A stretch of 63,344 nt of DNA, filler included, from 11 parts of 11 records of this genome joined end to end with filler, not necessarily neighbours in it, one strand, 5' to 3'. Numbered from the whole stretch's first letter, positions 7,182 through 63,330 are shown. Numbers and translations are program-made. Notes: generated by a model from the sequence alone, not told the origin.

Positions 7182-9611
7182 ATGGCGGCTTCATACCCGC
7201 CGGGCTTCGCACCCGAGGACTGGAGGGCGGCCGCGCGGGACCGGCAGCCTGACGCGGCCCGGCAGTCCACGGTGGACGCGGCCAAGGCGCAGATCCGGAC
7301 CGAGATCGAGCTGGACGAGTGGGACCGGCGGGGGTACCATCGGTCGCTCGACCTGCAGCGAATGCGCCAGCACGGCCAACGGGCGGACAGCCAAACCCGG
7401 GTGGACAGCCACGCCGTCTCGCCCGAACAATTCCTCGAGCTCTACCAGCGGCCGCAGCGGCCGGCCGTGATCAGCGGGCTCTGCGACCACTGGCCGGCGG
7501 CGTCAGCGTGGACACCGGAGAAGCTATCTGCTCGGTTCGCCGGTGTGAACTTCCGTGTGGGGTCCGACGACGACGGGGACGCGGTGGAGATCCCGATGGA
7601 CTGCTTCTGGTGGTACTGCCAGCATGGGCAGGCGGCTACAGACGACAACCCGATTTACCTGTTCGACCGAGAGGTTTGACGTCCCAGGTGGCGCCGGAGC
7701 CGTGGGGGGGCAGTTTGAGGACTCTGACCGGGGCAAGTCGCTGGTGGACGACTATGCGGTGCCCCCGTACTTCAAGCAGGACCTGTTCGGGGTGATCGGA
7801 GACTCTGACCGACCGCCGTGGCGCTGGGTGGTGATGGGGCCAGCCCGGTCAGGCTCGGCCGTGCACACCGGTGGCTCAAGATACTGGCCGGCGTGCTGAT
7901 TGTGGCGTGTAGATCCGTTGGACACATCGGCCTGGAACGCGCTGCTCTCAGGCCACAAGTATTGGGTGCTTTACCCGCCTGAGACTCCCAAGGCGGCCAT
8001 CAAGCCGGAGCTCGAGGACGAGCATCACGTCGGCGGGGCGGCAGCCTGGTTCAGCCACGTTTTCCCGAAGACGCTCAGTCCGGATTGGCCGTACGCTCCA
8101 CCTGTGGTGATCCTACAGCACCCAGGGGAGACCATGTACGTGCCTTGCATGTGGTGGCATGCCGTACTCAACCTGGACACTACCATTGCTGTCACCCATA
8201 ACTTGGCTGAGCCGGTCAATTTCGACAGAATCTGGCGGACTGTCGCTGTCAAACGGACAGACATGGTGCACCTCTGGATGCGGATACTTAAGGCATCCCC
8301 TGCTGGCTGGCGCGGCTGACCCAGCTGGGTCAGGAGGAATGGCCGGAGCTAGCTATCCGAGCTGAGCAGATGGGCGGCTTGACGGCAGTCCGGGAGATGG
8401 CGGTGCACCACCGGAAGAAGAAGGCCCGGTCTAGCATACCGCTCAGTAATTGGACAGCCGAGCGATACGCCGAGCGGCTAGACTTGCCGGCATTGTCAGT
8501 TGCTCCGTCGCGAGAGGCGGGGCTGGTGAGGCTTTGCCTGCCGGAGCAGTTGGACGAGGCCTGCCAGCGAGTGGAATGCGGGGCTGGCCCGATGCTGCTC
8601 CAAGGGGCGGCCGATGACTGGCCGGCCTGCGAGTGGAGCCTGGACAGCCTCAACAACCGGTTTGGAAAGTGCAAGCTGTGCGTGGGCTCGTCCGATGAAG
8701 GCGCCTCGGTGAAGATGCCGTTGCGGGACTACGCGTGGTATTGTGGGAGTGCAGAGGCCTCGGCGGACGACAACCCTCTTCAAGGCACTCGTGGCTGTTG
8801 GCTGCAGACTGAGCTCAATGGTCGCAGTGTACGACGGCAGCTTTGAGGACCACAAGAAGCTCCGAGCGCTGCTGGACGAGTACACCCCTGCGAGCTGCTT
8901 CCATAACGACCTGTTCAGCACTATTCCCGACGATGATCGCCCGCCCAACAAGTGCTGCGCTGGGGGCTGTGCTGGGTGAGCGGCTGGGCAGGTGGATCGT
9001 GATGGGCCCGGCTCGGGCCGGCAGCGCGTTGAGTGTGGACCCGCTCGGGACATGCTCATGGCACACGCTGCTGCAAGGGTCCCGCAGGTAAGGCCACGTG
9101 CAGCAGTTCAGCCTCAGCCTGCCGTGCAGGTGGTTCTTGGCTGCACCCGGAGTGTCAAAGCGGGCCATGGCGCCCAGAGGCAAACTGACACTCCCGAGCG
9201 ACGTAGGCGGCGCAGCCCAGTGGTGCGCGAATGTGCAGCTTGGGTTTCTGACTCGGCAGCTGCAGGTTCGACAAGGTGTATCCGATGACTCAGCTCGCGA
9301 GCTGGCACGGGCACGTTGTGGAGATCACGCAGCGGCCTGGCGAGACTCTGTACATTCCAGCCGGCTGGCAGCAGGTCGTGATCAACACCGAGTTTTCGAT
9401 CGGGCTCACTCAGAACTTTGCATCGGCATACAACTTTGATAAGGTGTACAGTATGGTGGCCTCGAGGCGCGAAGACATGCTAGACGCTTGGCTGGAGGGG
9501 CTGGCCCGTACGCATCCACAGCTCTACCAGCAAGCGCTTTACAAGCGGTATAACAACGGAGCTGGCTTTTCCCGACTACCGCAGTCTACTGTTGCATTGG
9601 AACAAGCTTGA
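7182..9611 (+). CDS. Tandem double JMJD6-like JmjC protein, 8 exons
   Basis: First half has [37 protein letters not shown] and WWHAVLNLDTTIAVTHN. A second copy follows after GC-AG intron 8293-8333. Seven introns of 40-43 nt. Confidence 0.85.
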
Positions 9612-18070: not shown

Positions 18071-20660
18071 TCACAACTGATCATAACAGGGTGCAGGCGG
18101 GGGTGCGTCGTAGTCATAAACGTCGTAATCTTCGTCGTAGCCCGTTGAGAGCAAGGCCTCTTTCTCATCGTAGTCATAGCCCTCGGCGCGAGGAGGTGCG
18201 ACTTCCGACTTCTCCTCCTCGGGGCAGCCAGCAGCTTTGAAAGCCTCGGTTGCCATGTCTGAATCGATCATGCCAAACATGAACTCTGCCTCATTCTCGC
18301 ACTTGTTGACAAAAGTTGTGGACACCTCCTCGTTCTCGCCCCTTTGGACCAGGACCTCTGTGACCTTGGCCTTTACAACTGTGTCCCAGTACGGCTTGGC
18401 TGCCTTGATTACATCGAGCAGCTCGCTGAAGTCTTCTCTCAGTTCGGCGACGTACTCTGGGCTGGGCCGGTACTTGGCAGGGTCGAGGATCTTCGGGGAA
18501 TCAGGTCGAGCGATAGTTTTCTGAATGAATTTCCCGTACGGCTCCAGCCAGGGGATCACCATGTCCGAATACCGACTCTTCTTGCCGGTCACCTGTGTCC
18601 ACCGGAATCAGCCCCAAAGCCGGTCCTTGGCCAGCTGCCTGTGCAGCTTCCCAGTCCGCTTTGGAGGGCAGCAGCTCCGCCAGATCCATCCCCGTGACAT
18701 CGAACCCGGCGGTCATCACCTTGCTCACCAGCTTGGCTGACGACAAGCCTTTGAGTGTCTCAGCCGCCTGAGCCCACAGCTGAGCCCGCAGCAGCCAGGC
18801 CAGCACCTTGAAGCCCAGCCCGCACAGCGCAAGGCTAAACCGGGCCTCGCTGCCTCTGTAGCCCATCCCCTTCTTGCCTTTCTGGATGTCCTTGATTGCC
18901 TCTTGCTCCATCCGGGTCATGCTCCACTTCACCATTGCCTGCACGCTGTTCAGCCATGTGAACTCAGAGGGCAGCACCAGGAATGTGCCCAGCCTGTCTT
19001 CGCCTCGATCCACAGGGGTTCGAAACAGCATGTCATCCAAAAAATGCTTTTTGAGGCTGTCGGTGGTCTTGCCCGAAATGTTTCCGATAGCCTCGACCAC
19101 TTGATCAATCAGCTCGGTTGGCGGCATCTCCGGCGTCTGAGTCCCCATTTCGTCACATGCTTTCTCGACCATCTGCATCCGCAGCTGAGTGGGGACGGAG
19201 CCTGGGAGGATGCTACCTTGAAATACATAGGGAGGAGCACGTCCTTGGCCATCTGGCTGGCGAACTCGAGCGCATTCTCGAATTGGAAGAACACGAGGCT
19301 GCGCTGTGCTTGGAAGAATTGGCATGCAGCGAGGATTGACAGAAAAGGCATGTCACGATCCATTTGGCGGTTAAAGCTTCGCTCGTAGCCATTAGCATCG
19401 ACCATAATTTGAGTTTGCCGGATGATCTGGGTGATCACCTCCACCAGCTTGACATGCCTGCCGACCGCGCTCAGCGCACCCTGAGCCGAACCTACCAGCT
19501 GAACTCGACCTCAAGCTTGGCAGAGAGCATATCCTTGAGCGTCACGCCGCCCGCGCCGCCCAGATCAGCCGCCGCGAACCCGAGACCGAGCTTGGCGGAC
19601 GCCTCGGGCAGGATGTGATCCAAGTCGTGCGTGACCGCCTCCAGAGGCTTGCTCGGGTCCACACCCGAGAACGCAGCCAGCCGCAACACTCGCTGGCCTC
19701 CCACGTCGCAGCATCCGACACGAATCGAGTCAAACGGCTTGTTGGACACTAGCCCGGTCCGGATCAGCTCGCGGGGGATGTCGTTCACCATCTTTTGGAC
19801 CACCGGCATCGCATAGTCGTCAAAGCATTGTTCGATCCCCTTCGCGAGCGCTTCCAACTGAGCTTCATCTGCGCCCTCCTTGACAGCGAAATCGACCACC
19901 GCCGCCAGCCCGCACTCCTCGTTCGGCGGACCAATCGCGGCCAGCTCCTCGGCCCCGCCGGGTCGGACATACATGTGCAGCTCGCTGCGGACATCGGAAT
20001 CGCCCACCTTGACAGTCAGCTGGTTGCTCGAGCGGCCGGCGGGATCATCCGGCGCGATCTTGTTCATGGACCCGACCAACCGCTTGATCCAGAGCGGGAT
20101 CATCAGCTTGACCTTCAGCGCCAGCTGCCGCATTGCCCATGCACCCTCGGCGTCGTCCTCCACCTCCTCCTCCACGATTTTCTTGATCTTGGCTTGATCG
20201 TACCGGGTCATGTTTTCGGTCTCGGTCTTGCTGTAGTCCCAAAAGAACTGGTCCTGCAGCTTGCGCACCTCGGCCTGCTCCCCGCTCATCGCCTTCTCAA
20301 AGCTCTCAAGATCGGCCGTGTTGACACGATCCAGCTTTGGGCACTTGGGGTCGGTGAACCAGGCCACCAGCTCGCTCTTGGAGATCTTCCCGCTGCCGTC
20401 CTGTGCAGGGCTGAGCCCCAGGGCCGGCCCCGGGCCGCACTGTGTCGAGCCGCTTGACCACAATGTCGAGCATCGGGTCCGGGAGCGGCATGTCCATAGC
20501 CGCCAGCAGCCCCCCGAACTCGGCCTGTCCCCAAATCCCAACGCCCGACCGGGGGGCACACCGGGTCGATCTCGCCGCTCCCGTCCACGTCATAATGCGA
20601 GAAGAGCTCGTCCACCTCTGCCTCCGACAGGCCCAACTTCCGTCCGAGTCTGGCGTCCAT
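18071..20660 (-). CDS. EF-hand pair plus long domain of unknown function, about 7 exons
   Basis: DVDGSGEIDPAE and DTDGSGKISKSE loops after splicing; short introns link ORFs 19492-20559, 19109-19444, 18501-19325 and 18071-18592. The last intron, 18593-18638, is GC-AG. Confidence 0.72.
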
Positions 20661-21201: not shown

Positions 21202-22980
21202 ATGGAGCCCCCGCCCGATCCGATGAGCCAGGCGGTCGGCTTCACCCAGCCGGGCTTCACCCAGGTGCGCGGCGCGGGCCCGGGCGGCGGGCCGAGGGCT
21301 CGGGGCAGCCGGTGCCGGAGGAGGACTTTTCGACTGAGGGTGGCACCGAGCCGGAGCAGGCCGATGAGGAGGCTGACGGTCAGACGCACATCTACGTGCT
21401 GCTGCGCACCGACCTCGAGGAGGTGGTGGATCTGGGCTACGGAGCGAACTTCACGCTAGGCCGGGGCAACAGCTGCGAGTACACGATCGAGGACCAGAGC
21501 GTGTCGGCGAAGCATTGCGAAATCAATAATCCGCGCCCCAATTTGTACGAGATGACCGACCTCAGTTCGAACGGTACCTACCTCGATCAGGCCCGGATGC
21601 GAGTGGAGAAGAGCAAAACGGTCGAGCTGACCGACGGGATGGAGCTGGTGGTGAAGAAGAAGTTCAAGGGCAAGCCCAAGATCTCGTTTGTCTTCTCGGT
21701 CCGCCGCAGCCTCGCGTGCCGTGCTCAGGGCGAGCAGGTGTATCCGAGGGTCGCGGGTCTGCCGGAGCCCGGGTTTCTGAACCTCCAGCGGAACTACAAA
21801 TTCGACTTCGAGGGCGCCGGTCAGCGACTAGGGTCCGGCACCTTCGCAGAAGTGTTCAAAGGCAACCGCACGAGGCTCGCACGCGCCGACCGCTGTGCCT
21901 GCAGGGACCTGCCGCAACTCCTCAAAGCTGGTGGCGATCAAGGTGCGGGCCCTGCCCGGGCCGAGCGAGCCGGCGGGCGACAGGCGGTGGACAAGAAGAA
22001 GGTGCAGGTGCACACTTCGCTCAGCCAGCAGTCGATACAAGACGTGCGTTCGTGGCGCGAATCAGCCGACCCGGGGCGGCAGGAATTCAAAATTCTGAAG
22101 CAGCTGCAGCACAACGGGATCGTGCGGGTGTTTGACGTGTTCGACACGCAAGACAAGCTGTACATTGTGCTCGAGCGAGCTACAGGCGGCGAGCTGTTTG
22201 ATGCTGTGCTGGAGAGACAGTATAATGAGAGCGACGCTCGTCACGTGTTCAGACAGGTCCGACCGGCTGCCGGCCAGCCCAGTGAGGTGGGGGCAGATGG
22301 TGGAGGCGATCCAGTACCTGCACGACAATGGTGTCGTACACAGGGACTTGAAGCCTGAGGTGCTGCTCAGTGCTGCTCCGCTGAGCTGCCTGGGACAGAA
22401 CGTGCTGATAGCCTCCAAGACGCCCACCAGGGCCAAGCAGCGGGTGGTGCTAACGGATTTCGGACTCTCCCGGCTGGTGGGTGCCGAGAGTTTTATGCAA
22501 ACAGTGTGTGGCACGCCGCAGTATCTAGCTCCGGAGGCTTTCCCGGCCCCAGGCCAGTCAGTTGCTGCAGGCTACGACAAGCAGGTAGACATGTGGAGCC
22601 TGGGCGTGATCTTGTACATCCTGATCAGCAAGACCATGCCGTTCGCCGGGCCCACGCCCAGCTGCCCCAACCGGACCACTGTCGAGAGCCAAGTGCGGTC
22701 GGCCCAGATTTCGTTTCCTGAGGGCCCGAGCGAAGAATTTAACTGGGCCAGCGCCTCGCTGTCGGTTAAGAACCTAATACAACGGCTGCTCACGAAGGAG
22801 CCCTCAAAGCGCGCCACGCCCAAGCAAGTCCTTGAGCACTCGTGGATGAGGGGCCGGCCACACCCTTCAGAGGAGGAGGAGGCGGCCGTAGTAAAGACGC
22901 CACAACGGCCGTCGCCCAAGCGGAAGCGGAACACGGGGCCGCGAGAGACGGACAAGAACAAGACGGTTAGGGTCAATTGA
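21202..22980 (+). CDS. CHEK2: Checkpoint kinase 2-like (SQ/TQ cluster + FHA + CAMK-type kinase), 8 exons
   Basis: N-terminal SQ..TQ..TQ; FHA motifs LGR, VSAKHC, DLSSNGTY; kinase motifs LGSGTFAEV, VAIK, HRDLKPEN, DFG, TVCGTPQYLAPE. One GC-AG intron at 21862-21904. Confidence 0.85.
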
Positions 22981-23475: not shown

Positions 23476-23575
23476 NNNNNNNNNNNNNNNNNNNNNNNNN
23501 NNNNNNNNNNNNNNNNNNNTTAATTAATTAANNNNNNNNNNNNNNNNNNNNNNNNNNNNNNNNNNNNNNNNNNNN

Positions 23576-26500
23576 GAGCAGCTCTTCAGCAATTCCCAAC
23601 AGCACCTGGCTGACACCAACTTTCACATCAAGTCGGTGTGCAGCTGGCGCCGAAGGTTTTTCCATAGGAAACGTAGGACGTGCACCTGCTGCAATCATTT
23701 CTGTTGACTTCGGTCTCTTCTTCAGATACAAATCCCAATCGACTGGCACCACTGCAAGTTTGGCACAGGCCTTGGCAAAAAGAACTTTTGACAGAGCATT
23801 CTCGACCATGTCACAGTTCACAGCAGAAAGGCCAATACGCTGTAGCTTGGAGTCTGCTTGAGTGCGTGCACCCATTCCGACTTGCGACACTGCACCCCAC
23901 TGGATCGAATGGGCATTGATCCCATTAGCTCGTGCATAGTGTACGGCTGCATCAATTGCAGCGTTTGCAGCGGAATAGTTTGTTTGTCCAGCACCTCCAA
24001 AGGTGCTTGCAATCGAAGAGAAGACCACAAAATGCTGGATGGAATTCTTTGGCATGGCCTTCAAAAGGTTGAAGGCTCCAACCACCTTCGGATCCCAAAC
24101 CTTTTTAATACGGCTTTTTGTTTGGTTGCGTAGAATAGCATCATCCAGCGTGCCTGCAGCATGAATGATCCCCGTCACTGCAGGCCAGGACTGGCTTGCA
24201 GCTGTAGACATTGCCATGCGGACCTCGTCTGAATTTCCAACATCTCCACATGGCCTGGCAATCTTCACATCCAGTGATTGCAGGTGCTTCCAGTGATCTT
24301 CTGAACCAGCAGGTACCTTTCCGCTTCGCGACATGAGGATCAAGTGCTTGACACCTTGCTGCACAAGCCAGCAAGCTGTGACTAAACCAAGCCCACCGGT
24401 CCCACCGGTGACTAAATAGGTTCCTTCGAGCTTTTGAGCTGGTATGTCCTGTTTCATAAGTGGTGACGGAATCACCCTGTGAACAAAACGCGTTTGATCG
24501 TATATGCATACCTCTGACTCATGCCCAACTCCACCTCGATTTGATGCAGCTTCGTGAAGAACCATTTCTGCCTCAGCTTTCCCCTGCCTATCAATATCAA
24601 CACACTTGAGCGCGATCCCAGGATGCTCTAGCGCCACAGCTCGTGCAAAGCCCCAAAGGCCGGCATGCTGCGGCCGACTCACTGCCTGTGGGCCTTCAAC
24701 CGGCTGTGTCCCGGATGTTAGAAAGACAATGGGTGGTGGTGATTTATGGATTGATGTGAGCGCCTGGGTCATGCGAAGTGCCGCATCCAAAATGTCTACT
24801 TGGTCCTTTGAACTGTCAAGAGCAGTTAAGAACAGAATTCCATCCCAGTCACGTTTGGCCAAGAGTGCCTCCATTGGAGGCATCTCATCTGAAATCGGCT
24901 CGGGCATGCACTTTGCAAACACAAAATCCCCTCTGCACATCTTAATGGACAGGTTGAGAGATACTTTAGGACTGGTAATCACAAGCCAACGCTGGCTGTT
25001 ACGAGGGGCCTGGCACAGCTGTAGGTCCAATCTTTGCCAATTGGTTTCAAAAAGCCAGGGCAACTCTGAGCGTATCGCAATGGCTGTCTTTTGCTTGCTC
25101 TGCAGCTGCTGGTTCTGGTTGGTTTCATCACGGTCAAAGGCATCTGGAGGCGCCCATGCATATGACATACGGCCATATTCCCACTCCACAGTCGAGATGA
25201 GCTTGTCACACACCAATCCAGGGTCAGAGTTAACAGCTTCTTCCAGCATCACGTGGCTGTTTGTGCCTCCAAAACCGAAGGAAGATACTCCTGCAACCAG
25301 CGGGCCATCAGCACACAGGGGAAATGATGCTCCACATGGAAGACCAACAGGAAAGCCTTGAAGATCAAATGACTCGTTTATGGTCCTCAGGTGAGGCACT
25401 GGCAGTGCACGACGATGAACTATCGAGAGCACGGCCTTAGCCAGTCCAGTGATCCCAGCAGCACCTTCCAAATGCCCAACATTTGGTTTTGCCGATCCGA
25501 GAACCAGTGGGCTGGGCATCTTCCGCCCGTTGGCAAATACTTCTCGCAGCGCTGTGAACTCGATCACGTCTCCCAATGAGGTGCCAGTTCCATGCGCCTC
25601 AATGCTCGAGACCTCGTTTGGTTGCACATTCGCCATTTTATGCGCCCTCCTGATCACTGCCTGCTGTGCGGGACCATTAGGAGCAGTGAGAGTTTGACTG
25701 GCGCCGTCTTGGTTGACAGCAGACCCTGTTGCAAACGTGATGACTGCGCTGCATGTCACCTTGGCTGCAGAGTATATCTGGAGCGCTGCGGCACAGCAGC
25801 CTTCTCCTCGGACGTAACCATCAGCAGAGTTATCAAAGGTTGCATTTCGACCGGTTGGTGATAGCATGTTTGCTTTTGAGAGAGCCACAAACATATAAGG
25901 CGAGAGGCAGAGATTCACTCCTGCAACCAGTGACGTTGAACACGAATCGTCCTTCAGATATTTGATTGACGCATCCAGACCAACGAGCGATGCAGAGCAC
26001 GCCGTGTCCACTGTCATCGAGGGCCCTTTCAGACCGAGTACATATGAGACCCGGTTTGAGTGAATTGCTGCAGAGCATCCAGAATTGCCTGTTGCAGACA
26101 CGCCAGTTATCCTCTGATGCTGTGTTACAAGGCACCAGTCGTTTGAGCACACTCCAACAAACACACCCACATCGTCACCCATGAGTGACTTCCTCGTGAA
26201 ACCAGCACAATTCAATGCAACATAGGACATTTCAAGGAGCATTCGCTGCTTTGGGTCCATAGCAAGTGCTTCCGCTTTCGCAACCTTGAAAAATTTCGCA
26301 GCAAAAAGATCTGCATCCTCGACCCAGCACCCAGCATTAGTGTAGCACTTGCCCCGAGCCATTTTGTTCTCAGAATAATACAGCGTCTTGTCCCAGCGTG
26401 AAGCTGGTACGTCTTTTGCAGTGCAGATACTGTTGTCTAACAAGCCCCAGAACTGTGCCGCCATACCAATGTTATTTGGAAGTTGACACGACATTCCAAT

Positions 26501-26705
26501 GATTGCAATAGGTTGGTCTGACGATGGACTTGTTGAATCAATCATAGGGTTTGCAGTGGCTGCAGTCAAGGCACTGAGCTGAGAGGCTGCGACCACATTG
26601 CTTTCTGATGCTGACGCAGAACCGGTAGCTTTGATGCCACGGCCCTCTAGGTAGCCTGCTATTTCTTGTACTGTCGGATAATCAAATACCAGAGATGCAG
26701 GTAGC
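23576..26705 (-). CDS. Internal fragment of a modular type I polyketide synthase: (ACP end)-KS-KR-(ACP start), no AT
   Basis: LVFDYPT ACP tail; KS with DTACSASL, EAHGTGT, GHLEGAAG, SFGFGGTN; KR with GGTGGLG, HAAGTLDD, YSAAN. Open across the whole contig, no introns. Confidence 0.93.
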
Positions 26706-26805
26706 NNNNNNNNNNNNNNNNNNNNNNNNNNNNNNNNNNNNNNNNNNNNTTAATTAATTAANNNNNNNNNNNNNNNNNNNNNNNNNNNNNNNNNNNNNNN
26801 NNNNN

Positions 26806-27949: not shown

Positions 27950-30427
27950 ATGTCCGCAAGCGATGCGGTGCGCTCCTCAGCGGTGCTCTCACCGATGTTG
28001 TGGTGGGCAGCACGGTGCGCGAGTCTACCGCTGTTTGATTTCCAAGGGCGTGGCGTACCGTGCGACCCTCAACTTCGCAGACAAAGTGCGCTGCCCTGGG
28101 GCCTGGCTAAGCTCCTTGCAGTGCGGCGCCGGCCCAGTCGAGCCGCAGTGTGTGGTGGCCTCCGAGCTGACTCAGGGCCCAGACGCGGTGTGGCTCTGGT
28201 GTCAGTCGGGCAAGGGCTTCCTGCCACTCACCTCAGCCAAGGTGCGCCCACCCGGCCCAGTGACTCGACCGCCGGCCAGGGTGAGGTCCGTTGCTTCGAG
28301 CTGCTCGGGCCGGCGGCGAGCATGGACCTGTCCGGCCTGCAGTTTGCCAACTCGAAGCTCTACGGCGCTGCCAGCATTCCAGGTGCGGCGGTGCTGCAGC
28401 CGGGGAGCTGACTGGATTGCGCCAGAGGGTCCGCCGATGCCAGCCGATTGCAAGTTTGGCAGGAGAGTTTATCGCAGGCGACCCGAAGCCACCGGGCTGA
28501 GCTATTACTCTGGGCCGTCTTTCGATGCCAAGGTCAAAGTAGGGCTGGGCCAGCTCTGACCGACACACAGATTGCTGTGCATCCATCTGGCGTACCTCCT
28601 TTTGTGCTAGCGATTGGATTGCAGCCTGGTAAGTCCCGAGGTGACTGGGCTGCAATTGAGCTTCCTGTTTCAGGTCCAGGCGCTCTGTTCATCCAGTGTA
28701 ACTCGGGCAGGGGCTGGATCCCACTCAGTTTAAATCAGGTAGACCGGCGTGCTGGCCGCGACCAAGCTGCTGGGCAGACCCAGCTGTTTGATTACATTGG
28801 ACCGGCCGACAAGCTACAGCTGGAGCACTTTGACTTTGGCCAGCTGCACAACCCCCCACCGGCCCTGCCAGCACAAGCCGCCCAGAGCCGGATGAGTGCA
28901 ACCATCGAGCCCCCCAAGCAAGTTAAGCCAGAACCGGTGCGACCCGTCCAGCAAGTATTGCACAGGGAGGCAGCACGCCAAAAGAACGAAGTGCAGGGAA
29001 TGCAAATGCAGATAGACGCACTTCGGAAGGAGCGGGATGATGCAATGCTATCACTGCAGCTGAAGGACAACGATAGTTCGAAAGAGGCTCAACAGAAAGC
29101 AGCACTGGAGTTGTTGGAGGCACAGCAAGCACTCAGGCTGGTTAGTGACGAGCGGAACAAGTTGATCGTCAAACTCGAGACTCTGAAGGTCTCAACATCA
29201 TCTGACTCCGAATTGGAAGAGGCAATTGTCAACACCTGCGAGCAAGCCCTTGTCAGTTGCTTGCAAGCAGATGCTGAGCAGGGCTGGGAGGTAATAAAAC
29301 CCCCAGCAGGAGCAGGCGAATATTCAGTGAAAGTGAAAGAGAGTGGCAAATCGATAGTCCTGAAAGTAGAGTGTACCATGAACGCATCGCGTCAGCAGAT
29401 CATCGACACATTGCGGCAGGGCAGGGGTGGACCTAAAAACACATCGGTGCAAGTTGTCAAGAAACTCTCCAACACCACATCCTTGTTACACATTGAAGCA
29501 AGTCTACCTTTAATCAAGACACGTGATTTTGTATGTGGTCAGTGGATCAATGAGGGTACAGAGCCCACAGCTAAGGTTGTGTATTGTTCAATTCCGTCCG
29601 AATTGAGTGAATCTCTGAAGCCTCCCACTTCGAAATGCGTTCGTGGAATGATTGTATTCCAATGCATGTTTGTAACGCCTATGGCTGGGGACAGCAACCA
29701 ATCGTCTATAAAGTGGCTTTCCTGTGTAGACCCAACAGGTCACAACGCAGCCTTTTCATTTATCTTGGCTGCTCACTGAGGAGAATGCTGTGCAGGCAAT
29801 GTTTCTGGTGTAAAAACTATGACTGCAAACGAAGCCATCAAAACAATGACAGCACTGCAAAAAGCTGCAGTGGGTACGGTCAACGCAGAGGAAGCAATAG
29901 AGCAACTGCTGAAATCAAAGCAGGAAAATCAGTGGCTCCAGGGGCAACAAGAGCGACTTCAGTTGTTAGTTGGTCCTGGACAAATGAGCAACCTGCAGGA
30001 CGAAATGGATCAGTTTGAAGTTGACCGTTCTATGCTAGAGGATCTGCTCTCTGCTGAAGAGGCAGCCCGAAAGCAGCTTTTGGAGAGCGAAAAGAAAGCC
30101 AAGCTAGTCAGTGCGCAGCTTGCTGAAATGGAGGGAAAACTCGCTTCTATGTCTCCACAGCACGAAACAGGAGATGTGACAAAAACGCAGGCAGAAAACT
30201 CTGAAAATGAAGAAAACGAAGACATATACGCCAGGAAGAAGGAACTGTATAAATCAGAGCAAGAAATACTCGAGCGCGAGAAACAGCTTGAATATGCAAG
30301 GGAAAAATCAGACATAGCAGAAAAGGAGCTTGAACTGCAGGTGAGGGAGAAACAATTGGCCCAGAAAGAACGGCAACTGAGGAGGCTCGGTGCCACTCAT
30401 GGTACAGGACTGAATCAGCTCCAGGCG
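27950..30427 (+). CDS. Protein with two N-terminal SH3-like repeats, coiled coil, START-like domain and coiled coil (3' truncated)
   Basis: About 8 introns; START motifs QGWEV, PLIKTRDFV, KCVRG and VDPTGNV (after a 57-nt intron). Confidence 0.72.
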
Positions 30428-42819: not shown

Positions 42820-43732
42820 ATGGTGTTCAAGGACGCCCTGACCGAGTCCGGCTTCAGCGGGGACCAGATCTACGAGGCGGTGCGCCCCGGGCCCACCGGC
42901 GGGCGCCAGCCGGGCCAGTTGGACTATTGCGACAACGACAGGATCAAGGCGCTCAAGTGGCTCCAGAAGACTAAAAAAGCCGACGGCAAGGTCCGCCCCC
43001 GACCGGCCGGGGCCGACCGGCGGGCCAGGCGGACTGGAAGGCGGTGCTGTACCAGCGGCTGGAGCAGGGGGAGGTGCGCCACCCGCTGGGGATCGTGAGC
43101 TCGTTCAGGTCACCGACAAGCAGTTGGCGGACCAGCTTTGGCGGCTGTGGGAGCACGCCAACTGGCAGGCGCGGCGGGGCCCTAACGGCCTGAGCCCAAC
43201 GGCAGGACAACGTGCCGATGAAGCCCAAACCGTTTAAGAACTTCGTCTCCAATTCGCTGAATCTAAAGCGGCAAGAGGCGACCGGCCGGCCGGCGGCGGC
43301 GGCGGCGAGCGGTGACCACAGGAGCTTGTGGGTCGGATGTGGGATCAAGTCTCCAGCTGCCTGGCCCGACCGGCGCAGCCCGAGAAGAAGCGGAAGGAGT
43401 CGGAGGTCGAGGAGCCACCGAGTAAGAAGAGCAGACCTAGTGACGAGCCACCCACGGTGCCGGCCGGGCCGGGAGGCGCTGACAAGGGGCAGGCGAGCGC
43501 GCTGTGCAAGCTGACGGTGAAGGCGCTGGAGGGGAGCAAGGCCGACAAGGTCTCGCGAGCCAAGCTGTGGAAGAAGGTTGGCCGCGGCCGTTGGGCGCCC
43601 GGCGATTGAGTGCAGGTGGCAAAGCGGCTGGCGGAGGGTGCAGACGAGGAGGGCTGGTGGGAAGCAGTCAGTAAGAGCGATAAGTTCGCTGTCCGCGGTA
43701 AGAACAAGCAGACCGTTGCGCTCTCCTCCTAG
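42820..43732 (+). CDS. UBA-like domain fused to LYAR-like middle and C-terminal domains, 8 exons
   Basis: Spliced product MVFKDALTESGFSGDQIYEALDYCDNDRIKALKWL...DNVPMKPKPFKNFVSNSL...ELVGRMW...AKLWKKV...SKSDKFAV. Two GC-AG introns at 43169-43205 and 43278-43321. Confidence 0.68.
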
Positions 43733-47700: not shown

Positions 47701-50700
47701 ATGAAGTTCCTGCTGGGGCGGCTGGGGGGAGCTGCGCCTGTGTGTGCAGCTGTGCTGCGTGGACTGGGCTTTCTGGTACAGGTGGCCACCCATCCATCGG
47801 CAGGCGAGATGAGCATGCTGGAAGCCGTGCTGGCGGCCATCACCCAGCCGCAGAGCCAACCACAGCATTGGGCCGTACCGCTCTGGCAGCCTCTGCATGC
47901 GCTGATCGACTGCTGCACCCGCCCGGACAGGCTGATCCAGAGCTCGCACTGGCTGGCGGCGGTGCCCGCAGTCAGGGCCAGTCCAGATCCGATCACGCAA
48001 TATCTGCTCTGGCGGGTCATAGTCCGAGGCATCTGCGCCCAACCTGCGACCATCCCAGAGCCCGAGGCGTGGACTGCAATGCTTGAGCTGCAGTGCGACG
48101 CTTTGTGCCAGCAAGAGCCCCCAGCCCAGCTGGAGGGGGCCCCTGAGTGGGTCGTCAGCCACCTGGCCAGCCAGATGCCTAAGCTGGCAGCCGACGGGAT
48201 GCGGGCGGCCCTAGCAGCTGTCCGCCGCACAGCCGAGGGCGGCGGGCTGGATACAGTGCTCTCTTGGCTCTCTGGTGTGCCGCCCGCAAATCTGCCGCCG
48301 CTGACCAAGCCGCAGGTTTGTGCTCCGGACCTTCAGGGGGAAATGCCAAGCTGCCATTCAATAGAGCCATGGTACAGTTTTTCAGTGAAACGCTCGTGGC
48401 GATGCCGGACGCGCGATTGTGCCTGGCTCACCTGCCACAGCTGCTGGCAGTGCTCTGCGCACTGGCTGCCAACCAACACGCGCAGCGGGCTACACTCGAC
48501 TGCTTGATGCAGATGGTGCAGCCGGTAGTAGACGCCTCAGAGCTGCCGCTGACCGACATAGTCGAAGGCGCCGTGTTTGAACGGCTTGTCGAGAGCCTCA
48601 GGGAAGGTGGGCAGGCGCCGCCAGGGCTGGTGCTCGCTGTGCTTGCCTGGATGGTGCCTCAGCTCTCTGAAGCCCAGCAGTCTAGAGCGCTTGAGCGACT
48701 GCCTGAGTGGTTTGACAGCAAAGAGCACAAAAATGCTGCCCAGATGCATGGACTTGCTGAGCTGCTTGAGAGTGTCAGCAAGCAGCCAGCCACTGCAAAG
48801 CTAGTCCGACCGCACTTGGACGCGCTGCTGGCCCATCTGGAGGGCCCAGCCCCGCCACTTCAGCCGGTAGCCACGCAGGGTATTGTCGACGCGGCGCTGC
48901 ACTGCCTTGAGGCGAGTGACGGGTCAAGCGCCCTCCCGGCGGCTGTGCTGCAGCTGGCGGGGAAGCTGCAGGCCAGTGGCAAGTGGGGAGGCGCGCTGCA
49001 GTTACTGGCCAAGATCCTACCCACTGGGCGCGACACAGAGGAACCGACCTGCCAGCTTGAAGCGGCTGAGGCTGGCGAGCTTATCGAAAGCCTGTGCACG
49101 ATTAGTCTACAAGCTCCTAGGCTGCTGTGGCGGGAGAGGGCCGCGGAGCTGATTGGGTGTGCGCTGCGGGAAGCGAGTTTGTACCGAGCGGAGCAGCTGG
49201 ATGGGCGACTCACGGAGCTACTCAAGCACCCGGAACCGGAGGTTATTTTCACTTAATCACGTCAGTGTGGTCACATGCTGTGCAGGTGAGAACAGCACTG
49301 TTGGACCACTTGATCCAACTCGCTGACCACCCAGCAGTACACGCTGAGGCAACCCAGCAGTCGCTTGCTGCGCTCACTGATTGGCAGACCACCGCGCTTG
49401 TAGGCAAGATCTGGCAGGCTCTGCTGATGGCTGCCACTGCGGACGGGTTCGGCTTGGTCCGATCTAAGGCCGAGTTTTGCATCCAGCGGTGGGTTTGGCC
49501 GGCGGCAACCTCGAGCCCGGGCGCAGGTGGCTGTGGACGTTGGACAGCGCTGATTTGGAACAGTTTGGGCGGAAAGTAAAGCGCTGTCACACCGTGGCTG
49601 GCCAGGCGGTGGTGGGCGAGCTGAGCCTTGGACTGGGCACACTGGCAGCCCTGGCAGCTCAGGCCTTCGAGGCGGCTCGGCCCTGGGGGGTGACTGGTCA
49701 GGGCAGGCTGGATCTCTGAAAATGCTGGACGAGGGGCTGTGGACCGAGCTAGGTCAAATCGCGGGCAACCCTCTGGCTGGGGCTCAGGAAAGGCAGTTGG
49801 CTGAGCTGCTTGGCCGGTCAGGAGCTGCGCCATGGGCCGGGGTAAGCCTGCTGGTAGGTGCAAAGAGGGAGTGGAAGAGCCTGAAAAGCTCAAGGCAGCG
49901 GCTGCTGAGCAGCTGGAGCAGCCTGCGCCTCTGTGTGAGCAAGACTCGTTCATGGAGGTGGTGCTCCGGGCGAGGGCGGAGGCCGAGGAGGAGTTGGGCC
50001 ACTTGGAGATGGCAGATGAGCAGCATGATGTGTCGGGCAGCCAGCTTACCCCTCAGCTCGACAGGGTTCGGACCCAGCTGCGCCAGGCAAAGCCCTAGGC
50101 CTGGGGAGGGTGATCCAGCGCAGGAGGCGAAAGAGGAGATGGACGCCGAGCAGCGGCAGCTCGACTCTCTGCACGAGAAGTTGCGGAAAGAACGGATCGC
50201 GGCTCGTGAGGCGGCCATACATGAGCAGCACGCGGTGGCTGTGTGCTGGGCAGTGGAGGGCTGACTGGGGGCAGGCCTCGGTTGAGTTGATCAAACTGGA
50301 GACCAAGCTGCAGCTGAAGAGCGTCGAGCGGCAGGTGGCCCGACTCGAGGCCGAGGAGGAGCACCAGCAGAGCGAGCATGAGCATAGAATGGAGCAACTC
50401 AGGTTGGCGGTGCCTAGAGGTGGGAGCAAGCGTGGTGGTAGGTGGAGGGCCCCCGAGGAGAAGCCCAAGGAGGATAGGTGGGTGGTGTGGGGTATTTATT
50501 AATATGCTGAGCCTGAGGCAGGAAACAGCCGACAGAGAAGGAGCATTACCAGCCTCGGGCGGCGCGGGACAGGAGGAGTGAGCAGGGGGAAGCCCGGCGG
50601 CAAAGAGGAGGCGAGGACAGCAAGCGGGCCGACGAGGAGAGCAGCAAGGCAGCTGGGGGGGTGCCACTTGGTGTGGGGGTGGGGCTGACGGCTGCTGGTA

Positions 50701-52860: not shown

Positions 52861-54195
52861 ATGAGGCAGTGCGGGCTGCTGTGGCTGCTGCTGCTGCGGT
52901 CCGCCTGGGCCGGCACGCCCATCGTGCTGGTGCACGGGTTCATGGGCTGGGGGCGGGACGAGATGGCCGGATTCAAGTACTGGGGCGGCCTGTCAGACTG
53001 GGAAGCTAGGCTCCGTCGGGACGGGTTCGACGTCCGTACTGCAGCCGTAGGACCGATCTCCTCCAACTGGGACCGGGCGTGCGAGTTGTTTGCGTACATC
53101 AAGGGCGGCCGGGTGGACTACGGCGCGGCACATGCTGCTCGTTACGGCCACCTGCGGTACGGACGCAACTTTACCGGGCTATACCCAGAGTGGGGCACGC
53201 TGGACGGCCAGGGCCGGCCGCGCTCGGTGGATCTGGTGGGTCATTCGATGGGTGGCCAGACGGTACGGATGATGCTCCAGTTGCTGGAGAGTGCCCAACC
53301 CGAGCAGCGCGGGGCGCCGGCCGGGCTGTTCGGAGGTCTGGCGCTCCCGTGCGAACTGACGGGCGGCTCAGGCGGCAAGGGGGGGTGGGTGCGGAGCATC
53401 AGCACAGTGTCGGCCCCTCATGACGGGACCACCTTGTTCGACCTATGGCCCGACGGATTCGTATCAGTGGTTGCGCAAATGGCCAAAGGCATCGCGGGGG
53501 CGCAGGTGACCGTGCTTCCGCCTGGGTGTCTAATGCGGTGCTTCTAGGGGCTGTTTGGAGATGAGCTGGTGTTCGATTTCAAGCTTGACCAGTGGGGTCT
53601 GGAGCGTCGGCCGGGTGAGGGCTGGATGGCGTACGAACAACGGCAAGTCACTTCGGTGCACTAAGACTAACGGCTGGGTGTAACTAGGGTGCTGAATTCA
53701 TCTATTTGGCAATCGAACGAGCGAGACTTGTCCTCCTTTGACTTGACCGTCAATGGAAGTGAAGCAATGAACCGGTGGACACCAGCGCTGCCTGACGTAT
53801 ACTACTTCAGTCATAGCTCGTGTGCCACCAAGCAGGCAATGATAGGAGACCACCAGGTAGCTGGTCGGGCCGGGTGGGTGGTTGACAGCCTGCAGGTGCC
53901 CGATCTCACAATGTGGTTCTACCTGCAACCGTTTGCGCTCATGATGGGTAGCAACGAGGACAAGGACACGTGGCCGAGCGATGGAGTAGTAAACACTGTC
54001 AGCCAGAGCGGCCCACACAAGGGTTCCAATGATACCGTTGTTATGTTTGATCCATCCAAGCCCGTCGCCCCCGGGGTGTGGAATTTTGTCAGCGAGCATA
54101 GCGGATTGGACCACTTAGAAATCATCGGAAATGGTGTGCAAGAGGCATACCCGATCTATCAAGCAATGGCGTCGCTTATCGACTCCTTGAAATGA
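52861..54195 (+). CDS. Secreted triacylglycerol lipase of Geobacillus/Staphylococcus (family I.5/I.6) type, 5 exons
   Basis: Signal peptide; PIVLVHGFMGWGRDE, SSNWDRACE, DYGAAHAARYGH, GHSMGGQT, DFKLDQWG, SDGVVNT and DHLEIIG motifs; GC-AG intron at 53643-53687. Confidence 0.9.
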
Positions 54196-55861: not shown

Positions 55862-55994
55862 NNNNNNNNNNNNNNNNNNNNNNNNNNNNNNNNNNNNNNN
55901 NNNNNTTAATTAATTAANNNNNNNNNNNNNNNNNNNNNNNNNNNNNNNNNNNNNNNNNNNNTGCGGGGGTGGGGCTGAGGCTGCCGGCCCGCAG

Positions 55995-56344
55995 ACTTTG
56001 ATGACAATGGGTTCATCGACCCTGTGGACCTTGAGCTGGTGGTAGAGACCATGCTCAAGCTGGTAGACCAGGTGTGCTCATTCCATTAGCATAGCATCAG
56101 AGCTGGCCAGGACGACGCCGAGCAGCTGAGCAACGAGGAAAAGATCGTGATAATCCAGAAGGTGATGTGTGAGGGAGACCCATCGATCACTGAGGAGGAC
56201 CAACAGAAGCATGGATACCAGAATGTCGGCCAGGTCGGGGCCAGCTCAGAATGGGCTGAGCTGTGGCAGATCTCGTACCACGAGTTTGAGCGGATCATGC
56301 AGCGGGTGCCCGATTTTGAATCAAAGTTCTACATCTCGTTCTAA
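55995..56344 (+). CDS. C-terminal part of a CIB (calcium- and integrin-binding)-like EF-hand protein
   Basis: DFDDNGFIDPVDL, LSNEE..IIQKVMCEGD and ISYHEFERIMQRVPDFESKFYISF*; two short introns. Confidence 0.75.
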
Positions 56345-56691
56345 TAGCCAACACCGCCGGCGCCGGCGCACCGCTAACTAGTTAGTCACATTAAACATTG
56401 GTCAACACTGATTCGCGTCTGTGTTGATCCACCTCCAACCGCAAGTACTTGTATGCAGGATCGGAGGACGCTCTTGGCTCCGGTGCATCCGGACCGGACC
56501 ACCGTCTGGCGCTGGAAGAAGCGGGAGGCCTCCGGCCAACCCGACACACAACGCACATGCATCGGACACACGGCCGACATACACTCTATACACGCACAGC
56601 CTACGCACAGTGCACATATTAAGCTTTACACCCGACACATCCAACATCCAATCAACGGGCTGAACAACAAACTGACTTCGCGCCCGCCCGG

Positions 56692-58560
56692 ATGGCTGAC
56701 CAGGCGTCCAAAGCACTTGCGAGTGGTGAGTCCCGGGGGGTGGCAGGTTGTGCAGCTGGATACGGTCCAGCCTACGATGCAGAGCGTGCGCCCGCCGCTG
56801 GGGTGGTACTCATATTGCGCGCAGGTCCACATCGACGAGCAAACACCCAAGGGCAGCCGGGCGCCCGACCATGTGACCGACGAGCCGATGCACACAGATC
56901 ACAACGTGCTGGCCGACCAGCCAGAGCCCAAATCCACCAGTGCTGACGAGGCCGCGTTCGCTGAGGACGAGGAGGCGGACGGACCCAGGCGGCTCGAGCG
57001 GGCCCGTACGCTGGTGAGGCCGCCCAGCGGCTAGCCGGGCTGACCGGGCGCAGACCGAGAGCGAGGAGTTCGACTACCAGCGGACCATCTCGTTCTGGAG
57101 GCATGGGGCCCGGCTGGCCGGTTGTTGAGCCGTTGGCAGTGCGATCTTCTTCATCGAGGGTTCGGTGCTCTTCACGGTCGGGTCGCTTGCGCTCTACCCG
57201 AGCCTGATGGACCAGATCGAGGCAACGGCGGGCCAGTTTAGAGTGACGGCCTGGGCAGGTGTACAAATGGAAGGCACTGGGGTGGGTGGATTACCCTTTC
57301 ATGATCGGAGCCTGGAACTTCACTGTGGGCAACTACCTCGTGTACTATCTAGTCATAAACTCAGAGCAAGCGCACGCCACCAAATCGGACTCGGGCGAGG
57401 CCGGATGGTTCCAGCGGTACCCGACCGCTCAGGCCCGGCTGAGCTGCGGCAGCTACTGCACGGAGAAGAAGTTTGTGGCTTTTCCGACCCTTGACAGCGG
57501 GCACCTTGGAGCGCTGATGAACCTGATAGGAGCGTTGTTCTACAACGTCAACACCATGCACTCGCTCTACGGGTCCAACGCCAAGACAGAGCAGGCGCGG
57601 CTCGGGCTGGCCGTCTGAGTGCTGGTCAGGACTTTGATTTGTGGTACGTGATGACCGGTTCTGTCGGTTCTGTTTTCTTTGTGCTCGGGGCTGTGTTCGA
57701 GGGCGAGCACAACGACTGGCGCTCCTGCTCCGGCTGGAACCCTTGGCGGGGCAAGAACCAGGCGCTGCCCAAGATCATGTCGGTGCTTAACCTGGTCGGC
57801 GGGCTGCTCTTCTTTGTGGCTTACATAGTCGACTTCAACCACGTGGCATCGGAGAGCAGGCAGATCACCAGATGGGCCGTCGCCACTCCGTTCACTGTAA
57901 TAGCTAACCCGCACTCCCCGCTGACCAGCAGCCAGGTTGGATCTGTCTTCTTCACACTATCGTCTTGGATGTCGCTCTGGATGTGGAAGTCCCAGCAGTT
58001 TGGTCCCGAAGTCTCAGCCTCGGCCGCTCAGCCTGGGGCAGGTCTTGGGTTTGCCCAGCAACTCAGTTATTCGTGGGTGGACCCCAAGTCGCAGGTGGCT
58101 CAGTGAGTGCCAGGTCTGACAGCTGTGCAGGTGGACTGGAAGCAGCAGCTGATGCTGATGGTGTACAGGTTAGAGCTAGCTGGCTATACTATTGAACCCA
58201 TCCTACATTACGCTCTATTGCCTGATGCTGCTGGTGTGCAGCGGCAACATCGTGCTCGAGTGGCTCATCCTCGGGTTCGTATTCGCTTTGTACCACAACT
58301 TTGCCAACGCGCTTGGTAGCAAGTGGCGGGACGCTTGGCTGCAGGAGATTTGGTTCAAGGTGATCGCGTACCACGGAGTCATGTTCTTGGCCTCGGCCAT
58401 CCACACCACCCCGGACCGGCCACCGTACGGCGCCATGCTCTGGACACTCCGGCTGGTCTGCATTTATGGATTCATTTCCGATTCGTACTTGCTCAACCTT
58501 TGGAGCACTCTCAACGACCAAAGCTGCATGATCAACAAGTGTGTGCGGGATTACTCATGA
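56692..58560 (+). CDS. Polytopic membrane protein with YrhK-like repeats, about 12 exons
   Basis: Repeated helices (FFIEGSVLFTVGS, GSVGSVFFVLGA, NLVGGLLFFVA, VGSVFFTLSS); about 11 introns, four with GC donors. Confidence 0.7.
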
Positions 58561-58569
58561 TCAGCAAGG

Positions 58570-58650
58570 GCTCCTATGTACACCCTAACCCTCGCTCCTC
58601 TAGACGGGAATCTAAACCCTCGCTCCTATGTACACCCTAAACCTTAAATA
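58570..58650. repeat. Local direct repeats containing CCCTAA(A) motifs
   Basis: gctcctatgtacaccctaa occurs at 58570 and 58622; aaccctcgctcct occurs twice. Confidence 0.8.
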
Positions 58651-58913
58651 GGAACCTAAATCTGATTTAAATCATGGCCATGGGTCGACCAATTGCCATC
58701 GCTACAATAGAGCTCTCTACATTACAAATCAATAGCTTATATATAGCGTATGCGTACATGATTCACGACGAAATCCGTATAGTCATGAGCTAGCCAGTTG
58801 ATACTTTTATGAACTTAACATGAACTCGCACGATTGACGATTCAAGTACCGTACAATCATGTCAACCTTACGTATCAATTATGTGCAGCTATAAGCTCCG
58901 GTGCCCCTCGCGC

Positions 58914-59795
58914 TCACTGGTTGAGTTTGGCCGCCATCAAACTCTGCATGGTTTGGCCTGGACCAGCACTCAGCCGGCAGGGCGGGCGGGCTGCCTAGCA
59001 AGAAGTCTCGCGAGGTTGTGCCGTCGTCCTGGGTCTCGAGCCTGATAACTGCCTGGTTCATCACGTTGTTGAACCTCTGCTCGTCCTCGGTGCCCTGGAG
59101 CGCGAGCAGCTTCTGCAGGCTGGCCATATCCACCGGGGCTCCGCGATCGAGCAGCAGCTCAGCGAGCTCCGGCCGCTTGAATTGGATTGCCACACCGAGC
59201 AGCGTGCCCTGCTTGAGCACCACCCGGATGCTGCTCCCGGCCTCGAGCAGCGCCAAAAGCAGCTCGCCGTTCCCCTTGAGGCAGGCCAGCCCGGTGGCCG
59301 TGAACCCGAGCGGATTGATCGCGTCCAAGTCGGCCCCTGCTGCTATGGCCGCCCGCACCGCATCCAGATCCCCTTTCTTGGCCGCGGCTAGCAGTTGCTT
59401 GCTCGGCTCGTCCACCGCCGGCTTGAGCTCGGCCGCGCTTTTGTTCTCGCGCATGATCTGCCCCCGCGGCTCGGCCGCCCGCCGCTCGGGCAGCTGCCTG
59501 GAACGGGTCGGTCGTGTCGCTCGCTAGCGCCTCCGGCCGCCGGCAGGTTTTAAGCTTCTCGGTCCAGCTCATTGCCCGCCACTCGTCCACCCCGGCCAGC
59601 TTCTGCCCGGCCGACCGCCGGTCGATCCCCAGAGAGAAGAGCTCCTGCCTGGCGGCCTCCTCCACCCCGGGGCTCAGCTCCTCGGCCGTCGGCTCGGGCT
59701 CGGGCTCGGGCTCGGGTACAAAGTTCTGCCCGGGTGGCTGGCCAGCGGCTGGGGCTGCGGGCCGCCTGGCGCCGCTGCTCAAAGTATTGTTTGTC
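58914..59795 (-). CDS. Ankyrin-repeat protein (5' truncated)
   Basis: LLAAAKKGDLDAVRAAIAAGADLD, GFTATGLAC and GTLLGVAI repeats; EP repeats; probable GC-AG introns at 59458-59497 and 58958-58994. Confidence 0.75.
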
Positions 59796-62467: not shown

Positions 62468-63330
62468 ATGTCCAAGTCCAACGACGGTGCGGGGAGGGGC
62501 GCGGGGGCTGGGCCTAGTGCGGGGTGCAGCGCTGAAGCTGAAGCAGGACCTGGCCCTGACGGTGGAGCTGTTCGAGACGGAGGGCTTTGACCGGCCGGAG
62601 CTGATGCACCACTGCGAGCTGCTCGACCAGGCCAGCGAGTACGAGGCGGCCTCCGCTGCCGGCCGGGCCGAGCCAGCCGCAGGGGATGCTCAACTGTGCG
62701 ATCTGCCGGGTCCGGAGCTCGGGGGGCGGCGACAGCCTGGCGGAGGAAGTGCTCCAAAGGGACTTGTTCGCGGTGGCCTGCAAGAAGTACATGACCCACA
62801 AGCTCGGCCAGTGGCGGTGAGAGCCCGGGCTCGGCCGGAACGGACGGGGGGCAGCGTGCTGCGGGACCGGAAGAACGAGCTGGCCACCAACTCACTGGGC
62901 AAGCGGCTGGGTGGGCCGGGGCCTGGGCTGGGCCGAGCCGTTGGCAGAGATGGTGAACGACTACCTGCACCGATTCAACCGAGGGATACTGGACCACCTT
63001 AGCCAGATCATTAAGCTTTTGGACGAGCAACTGATCCCGCAAGCCAACTGTGACGAGAATAAGATATTCTTCTACAAGATGCTCGCCGACTACTACAGGC
63101 ACACGATAGACTTCCAGGAGCAGGACAACCTAGCCCAGTACAACCAGGCGGTCGAGGAGGCCAGGATCAACTACGAGTACGCCTGGACCCTGGCGGAGGA
63201 GGCCAAGCTCCACCCGACCAACCCTATCACGCTCGCACTCGTGCTCAACTTTGCGGTGCAACAGGCCGCCAATGCTTGGGCCAAAGGGGGGCTAACTAAC
63301 TAACTAACTAAGCGCGGCAGACCTTCTTAG
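62468..63330 (+). CDS. Divergent 14-3-3-like protein (3' truncated)
   Basis: Spliced product MSKSNDALKLKQ...LLDQASEYEGM...RDLFAVACKKYMTHKLGQWR...KIFFYKMLADYYRH...LHPTNPITLALVLNFA; GC-AG intron at 62646-62682. Confidence 0.8.

Follow-up and report, generated by a model that had tools for sequence, protein, structure and literature searches.

Frequent GC-AG introns among the very short introns of a presumed uncultured marine protist

The gene at 56692-58560 raises the question of whether GC can regularly take the place of GT at the start of an intron. An earlier note on this DNA had placed four GC-AG introns in this gene and described such introns as very frequent in the window, by which we mean the whole stretch of DNA analysed here (63,344 bases with ten masked N pairs; GC content 53-64%, about 60% overall). 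Long exons in the window encode an ABC-F ATPase, a KS-KR polyketide synthase, a MORN-repeat protein, a P450, an alpha-galactosidase, an FHA-kinase, a lipase, an ankyrin protein and a 14-3-3-like protein. The ABC-F protein has its closest named relative in Emiliania huxleyi (51% identity); it is 68% identical to another record and 38% identical to a pelagophyte protein. A mamiellophyte origin was ruled out, as the top named match was E. huxleyi and no Micromonas or Ostreococcus protein was found among the best 120 ABC-F matches. Because of the identities to E. huxleyi and the pelagophyte, we take the host for an uncultured marine protist whose affinities lean towards the haptophytes, and assign it to no named genus.

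Spliceosomal introns in the window are 31-52 nt long, are typically about 39 nt and number 9-25 per gene in some genes; in an initial gene-model pass they formed a tight class of 31-51 nt. Their signals are a G/GT donor (a slash marks the exon-intron boundary throughout) with little conservation after the GT, a branch motif resembling CTGA[C/G], with its A some 10-16 nt before the intron 3' end, and a CAG/G acceptor. Two tiny GT-AG introns, 56072-56110 and 56234-56269, are spliced out in RNA contigs from two runs, which shows that introns of this size are real.

The 14 segments proposed in the earlier note all run from GC to AG on the coding strand and span 35-46 nt, with 11 on the plus strand and three on the minus strand (18593, 58958 and 59458). 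When the claimed introns are removed, all eight gene models are free of internal stops. The segments match the GT-AG introns in branch motif, spacing, acceptor and length (GT mean 39.8 nt): a CAG acceptor ends 13 of the 14 GC introns and 67 of 80 GT introns, and the YTRAB branch motif is present in 8/14 and 33/80, respectively. Raw intron-feature scores, for which we call an intron feature-good at 0 or more, range from 1.2 to 11.9 in 13 of the GC candidates, the remaining one (53643-53687) scoring -1.3. Most confirmed GT controls score 3.8 to 13.1, the exception being the 73-nt intron 58169-58241 at -0.4.

Restored frames alone can mislead, and the GC donors could be a frame-restoring artefact, with the true introns using nearby GT donors or other acceptors, or with the segments being coding sequence. 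At the last three of the four focal introns, nearby GT donors had been said to give stops or the wrong phase; instead, in-phase and stop-free GT-AG alternatives exist near all 14 segments, as this explanation would have it. Most of these alternatives, however, fall outside the 31-52 nt range, at 55-130 nt, or have negative scores. Independent support was obtained for four of the 14: 57101-57139, 62646-62682 and 21862-21904 through homology or motifs, with colinearity to homologs restored at the exact boundaries in each, and 58958-58994 through a relative's transcript. The evidence for 8293, 18593, 43169, 43278 and 59458 is gene modelling.

The focal protein belongs to a eukaryotic family without a Pfam match, both the exons and the homologs having been scanned; Pfam searches with individual short exons of the focal, 14-3-3 and kinase genes returned nothing usable. 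Homologs were collected with an intron-free metagenome locus (L001) as query, which yielded 178 relatives at E <= 0.001, the best 150 of them listed, whereas exon 57259-57594 used alone found no match. A profile of 36 homologs was then used to score all stop-free, in-phase boundary pairs within about 65 by 65 nt of each junction. The spliced focal model is free of internal stops and reaches 449.5 bits against this profile; under GT-only rules the gene breaks into two gene models. The four GT-AG controls in the scan (57897-57935, 58003-58041, 58095-58130 and 58169-58241) were all top-ranked. One of them, 57897-57935, is in frame and stop-free and hence invisible to ORF logic.

In the same scan, the GC-AG form of 57101-57139 tied for the top among 1216 stop-free alternatives. 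Its best GT-AG rival, 57092-57139, scored 16.9 bits lower and drops a conserved FW that includes the invariant W of the ISFW motif, which speaks against an artefact at this junction. The next two GC-AG introns coincide with changes of reading frame: in tblastn alignments the conserved blocks switch frame near 57221/57253 and again near 57597/57630. Intron 57222-57258 is needed because the LYP and WVDYPF blocks, both conserved, lie in different frames, and of the GT options there, 57243-57273 has a raw score of -6.1 and 57177-57258 loses 27.6 profile bits. At 57595-57629 a frame change is likewise required, and reading through meets stop codons. The GT options score -8.8, -8.1 and -2.1 on intron features, with a fourth, 57537-57619, at -12.5; the GC form keeps the full profile score, compared with 440.9 and 443.0 bits for GT options. 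Both introns fall within variable loops, where the profile cannot place either to the base. Their GT-AG options lose 8.6-27.6 bits or are weak in intron features, and on these features the GC-AG forms are clearly far better than the GT-AG options. The first candidate, 56704-56746, sits in the non-conserved N-terminus, and translation might instead begin at an in-frame ATG some 85 nt further on, near 56777.

The proposal that four GC donors best restore the frames of this gene therefore stands for 57101 by homology and for 57222 and 57595 by frame change and intron features, while 56704 is a candidate. The claimed clustering of four such introns in one gene did not amount to a clear excess (binomial P = 0.04 for 4/10 with p = 0.14; P = 0.12 for 3/9 without 56704-56746). 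RNA contigs over 55962-59795 gave no cover of 56474-57881, where the four focal GC-AG introns lie. Further downstream, a relative's RNA contig has 52 letters in place of 58004-58130, and the loose end of X3 record 3 past 58166 resembles, as read by eye, the sequence from 58242 onward.

Table 1. Positions and characteristics of the focal gene and of the GC-AG and GT-AG introns discussed in the text. Raw, raw intron-feature score.
Feature	Position	Strand	Length (nt)	Donor or branch motif	Raw	Basis and remarks
Focal gene	56692-58560	+				496-aa multi-pass membrane protein, 10 exons, 9 introns (model of the earlier note)
Candidate GC-AG intron 1, focal gene	56704-56746	+	43	CAG/GCGTCC	10.4	
GT-AG intron	57014-57053	+	40	branch GCTGAC	9.7	gene model
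GC-AG intron 2, focal gene	57101-57139	+	39	GAG/GCATGG		confirmed by homology
GC-AG intron 3, focal gene	57222-57258	+	37	GAG/GCAACG	+5.2	GC at 57228 a possible alternative donor
GC-AG intron 4, focal gene	57595-57629	+	35	CAG/GCGCGG; branch GTCTGAG	11.1	
GT-AG intron	57897-57935	+	39			profile scan
GT-AG intron	58003-58041	+	39			profile scan
GT-AG intron	58095-58130	+	36			profile scan and RNA contig X3 record 3
GT-AG intron	58169-58241	+	73			profile scan; unusually long for the window
GC-AG intron, ankyrin-repeat gene	58958-58994	-	37	TAG/GCAGCC; branch GGCTGAG		
Candidate GC-AG intron	59458-59497	-	40		8.3	gene-finder choice
GC-AG intron, 14-3-3-like gene	62646-62682	+	37	GAG/GCGGCC		confirmed by homology
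GC-AG intron, FHA-kinase gene	21862-21904	+	43	AAG/GCAACC		kinase motifs
GT-AG intron, partner of 21862-21904	21943-21983	+	41			pair in frame and stop-free
Candidate GC-AG intron	8293-8333	+	41	AAG/GCATCC	9.1	gene model
GC-AG intron or GT-AG intron 8791-8827	8785-8827	+	43 (GC) or 37 (GT)			gene finder took the GT form
Candidate GC-AG intron	18593-18638	-	46		5.7	gene model
Candidate GC-AG intron	43169-43205	+	37	CAG/GCGCGG	11.9	gene model; best features of all
Candidate GC-AG intron	43278-43321	+	44		1.2 (weak)	gene model; GT options -7.5 to -10.0
GC-AG intron or GT-AG intron 53631-53687, lipase gene	53643-53687	+	45 (GC) or 57 (GT)			both forms in frame
GT-AG intron, upstream gene	56072-56110	+	39			joints in RNA contigs of X3 and X8; positive control
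GT-AG intron	56234-56269	+	36			joints in RNA contigs of X3 and X8; positive control

Two other genes supplied homology across a GC-AG junction. The 14-3-3-like gene, the final exon of which is matched by the Pfam 14-3-3 family, has two relatives (P0271 and P0273, 57-63% identical, P0273 being from a transcriptome assembly) that align without gaps across the EYE/GML junction created by removing 62646-62682. This GC-AG form tied for the top of 1513 alternatives, the best GT-AG form was 11.8 bits lower, again against an artefact, and two GT control introns of the gene were likewise top-ranked. In the FHA-kinase gene, removal of 21862-21904 together with its GT-AG partner 21943-21983 yields GSGTFAEVFKGTCRNSSKLVAIK, i.e. 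the kinase GxGxxG...VAIK block. The glycine loop and VAIK are spaced as is standard for kinase subdomains I and II. Without splicing, the frame contains no VAIK lysine, and its Pfam Pkinase match begins only at profile position 43. No in-phase GT donor exists for the acceptor at 21904, a further point that the artefact explanation does not accommodate; the other stop-free, in-phase GT-AG options near 21862 have other boundaries, lengths of 55-91 nt and scores of -13.0 to 0.3. The 39-aa kinase exon had no match in the PDB.

Transcript evidence bears on the ankyrin-repeat gene. In X8 record 12, from a relative 90-95% similar, the match stops at 58958, and the next 30 letters align gap-free with the sequence that starts at 58995. 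Past this junction there are eight mismatches, six of which are, as judged by eye, synonymous third positions in the upstream frame, and the similarity ends three codons short of the stop codon of the spliced frame. The record thus supports the exact absence of the 37 nt of 58958-58994 from the mRNA of a relative, at 90-95% similarity and not the host's own. X9 record 13, which is near-identical and comes from an RNA library, covers 58846-59005 and retains 58958-58994. This copy may derive from unspliced RNA or from DNA present in the library, or it may be a sign that the intron is not used, the last of which would agree with the artefact explanation.

The retained copy also concerns the quality of the sequence itself. 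Parts of 55962-59795 are present in public marine metagenomes and metatranscriptomes, with a share of sampled words of 0.12 or less per run. The source resembles a metagenome assembly, and at most 12% of the sampled words are present in any one run, so that consensus or assembly errors at +2, or a minority allele, might disguise an organism that really uses GT. We regard this as extremely improbable: the same T-to-C error would be needed at a dozen or more independent donors, X9 record 13 comes from an independent run, spans the 58958-58994 donor and shows no difference there, and similar GC-donor rates are documented in related kinds of algae.

Among the remaining segments, 8293-8333 competes with a 68-nt GT option, 8266-8333, with a raw score of 4.9. 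At two sites the GT form is a real competitor and thus a point for the artefact explanation. For 8785-8827, the GC form aligns without gaps to the first JmjC-like paralogous repeat of the same gene (218, versus 209 for GT 8791-8827), and judged by this repeat it is slightly favoured. The lipase intron 53643-53687 has the sole GCAAGT donor of the set and lies between stretches that both match Pfam Lip_C; its GT form 53631-53687 scores lower still on intron features, at -6.8.

How many GC introns are expected by chance was addressed with a decoy control, in which a Viterbi gene finder could use GT and, with the same prior, one further donor dinucleotide. Two earlier settings of the gene finder over-predicted, with long false introns and 394-484 introns over three training rounds, and were replaced by the calibrated model. 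Allowing GC raised the total score by 57.1 and gave 12 introns, seven of them feature-good. The 14 decoy dinucleotides gained 3.8-31.3 and gave 2-9 introns each (mean 5.1), with 0-3 feature-good introns each and ten in total. Since GC exceeds every decoy, GC donors are in use, and the earlier observation that GC-AG introns are frequent proved real in the window. The 2-9 spurious introns per decoy are what an artefact would produce, and some of the GC calls that come from modelling are probably false. Even so, with GC ahead of all decoys, GT forms disfavoured by the profile scans at 57101 and 62646, and most alternatives too long or badly scoring, we consider it very unlikely that the GC donors as a whole are artefactual.

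Compared with the 14 claimed segments, the gene finder read through 21862 and 58958, missed the gene containing 53643, took the GT form at 8785, shifted the donor at 57222 to 57228, and added 49672-49706 and 28091-28129. The GC-AG share is 12 of 94 modelled introns, about seven after decoy subtraction and at most about 16 of roughly 100 after curation. We therefore estimate that GC donors make up about 7-16% of the roughly 100 introns in the window. Simpler counts were less informative. A loose regular-expression count of donor dinucleotides did not discriminate, and a frame-independent count of intron-like X...AG segments found an excess for GT and none for GC, because the candidates borrow the 3' halves of genuine GT introns.

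We compared donor positions between the two intron classes, bearing in mind that the GC set was picked by the earlier note and by a model that rewards exonic AG, and so carries a selection bias. An exonic AG directly precedes 13 of the 14 GC donors, as had been claimed, compared with 29 of 80 GT donors (Fisher p = 8e-5). Positions +3 to +6 had been described as unconstrained. This is accurate for +4 to +6, which have no consensus (G at +5 in 4/14 GC and 48/80 GT introns), and inaccurate for +3, which is a purine in all 14 GC introns (A in 9/14, versus 10/80 GT introns). Compensation in the GC donors is thus present and confined to -2, -1 and +3, in a set partly biased by choice. The exonic AG and the +3 purine are positions that pair with the U1 5' end; they argue for, and not against, a role of U1 pairing at GC donors, which we infer from the donor sequences.

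These observations would be explained by ordinary major-type (U2-dependent) introns in which GC replaces GT at the donor, in a GC-rich marine protist with very short introns, and we hold this to be very probable. GC and GT introns share a length window of about 35-46 nt, a CTGA[C/G]-like branch motif and a CAG/G acceptor. Donors are generally low in information past their first two bases, so a T-to-C change at +2 may be tolerated given an exon-end AG and a +3 purine, which would keep the U1 5' end paired on either side of the +2 mismatch. The high frequency of GC would most likely stem from mutation or gene conversion that favours GC and acts on a permissive 5' splice site, an explanation already put forward for Emiliania huxleyi and pelagophytes. 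Both the spliceosome type and the mutational cause are read from the window's sequence and are to be taken as probable assignments.

A different splicing route would change the first of these assignments. Some of the GC-AG introns might be minor (U12-type) or otherwise non-standard: 8293-8333 begins with GCATCC, given as the motif that defines U12-type GC-AG introns in the pages cited from Sheth et al. 2006 (PMC1557818), and minor-like introns and U6atac genes are reported for E. huxleyi in the part cited of PMC11347168. Yet GCATCC occurs in one of the 14 only, the 13 other donors misfit the U12 type, and a TCCTTRAC-type branch site is present in none, the CTGA[C/G] motif being that of the GT introns. 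An Rfam search of the window returned no snRNA match at the gathering score or at E <= 1, and U11, U12 and U6atac had no match within it. We consider a U12-type or other non-standard route highly improbable.

A bolder reading takes up the earlier idea that donor choice relies on exon ends and intron length. Here, in a lineage no more than a distant relative of cultured haptophytes, introns would be defined almost wholly by a fixed length of about 39 nt, CTGA[C/G] and CAG/G, and the donor would need only G at +1, a purine at +3 and an exon-end AG, with GT and GC nearly equivalent and 5' choice having moved away from U1/U6 pairing at +4 to +6 towards exon-end contacts. We think this unlikely. 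If it were true, a change in the U1 5' end or in the U6 ACAGAG box would be predicted, and the splicing code would be one not described for any cultured organism.

The preferred reading, major-type introns with GC donors, can be compared with known systems. High GC-AG rates have been published for a haptophyte and for pelagophytes (PMC4028052; 10.1101/2024.10.30.620910), in line with the earlier note. In E. huxleyi, about 56-65% of donors are reported as GC, verified in part by RT-PCR, and intron retention is frequent, in the sections cited of Feldmesser et al. 2014 (PMC4028052). Like our host, E. huxleyi is a GC-rich marine alga in that account, with canonical AG acceptors and frequent GC donors, and its intron retention fits the retained copy of 58958-58994 in X9 record 13; unlike there, the share in the window is only about 7-16%. 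Predicted GC-AG introns make up about 14-17% in Aureococcus anophagefferens and about 14% in Pelagomonas calceolata, attributed to high genomic GC in the passages cited (10.1101/2024.10.30.620910), and introner elements of Pelagomonas are described with both GC and GT donors (10.1101/2021.10.25.465678). The pelagophyte share is of the same order as that in the window. In contrast to the window, with its introns of about 39 nt and 9-25 introns in some genes, pelagophyte introns are given in these sources as averaging 103-177 bp, partly as introner elements, with few per gene.

For model animals and plants, the part cited of Sheth et al. 2006 (PMC1557818) puts GC-AG introns at 0.4-0.9%, with other donor positions compensating for the U1 mismatch. 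The window's introns are of the same U2-type boundary class, with remaining donor positions compensating for the +2 mismatch; compensation in animals and plants is described over intronic positions, whereas in the window it is restricted to -2, -1 and +3. In the article texts searched, we found no published description of haptophyte genomes with such short introns. The window thus shows a phenomenon that is already known, now in another, uncultured lineage whose introns are unusually short and which would join the small group of GC-rich marine algae in which GC donors exceed 10%.

The donor rule that emerges is compact, AG/GCR, and can be tested genome-wide. Gene callers restricted to GT-AG introns would break up or garble about one in every four or five genes on contigs of this organism, which matters for protein catalogues from marine eukaryotic metagenome bins. 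Reading through 21862-21904 and 21943-21983, both in frame, costs the kinase its ATP-binding lysine.

Some introns in the window are invisible to ORF calling. These are in-frame and free of stops, either singly (57897-57935, within the gene for the 496-aa multi-pass membrane protein) or as a pair (21862-21904, a GC-AG intron, together with the GT-AG intron 21943-21983, in the FHA-kinase gene). ORF-based calling passes through such introns and adds 13-28 false residues. When the kinase pair is read through, the VAIK motif is lost. The kinase is also about 17 residues longer between VAIK and the alpha-C region (window 21984-22070) than 3f3z, its best PDB match, and a further short in-frame intron may be hidden in this segment.

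A homolog of the membrane protein gene without introns was found at positions 3-1223 of L001, the only related metagenome locus. Because a ribosomal protein L14e ORF begins just past this homolog, the spacing suggests either a very compact genome or a two-gene transcript contig.

The 37-nt GC-AG intron of the ankyrin-repeat gene (58958-58994, minus strand) was kept in an RNA-library contig that is near-identical to the window over 58846-59005. This contig represents either intron retention or DNA carry-over. Intron retention is reported as common in E. huxleyi (PMC4028052).

The donor of intron 8293-8333 is GCATCC, a motif described in PMC1557818 as defining U12-type GC-AG introns. Despite this donor, its branch region, GGCTGAC, has the ordinary form for this organism.

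Ten masked blocks are present in the window, the first at 5031-5130, all laid out as 44 N, 12 bases and 44 N. Several genes are interrupted by them, including the ABC-F gene and a polyketide synthase gene. The polyketide synthase fragment is one long exon, whereas neighbouring genes contain 9-25 tiny introns. In the 14-3-3-like gene, the last intron contains five copies of CTAA, giving stacked branch-like motifs. A run of 15 G, which is probably an assembly end artefact, closes the contig at 63330-63344.

Features in the window and on the metagenome locus L001
Feature	Position	Strand	Remark
Type I polyketide synthase fragment (KS, KR)	23528-26749	-	single long exon
Last intron of 14-3-3-like gene	63256-63320		65 nt
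Ribosomal protein L14e ORF	L001 1240-1695	same as membrane protein homolog	17 nt downstream of homolog
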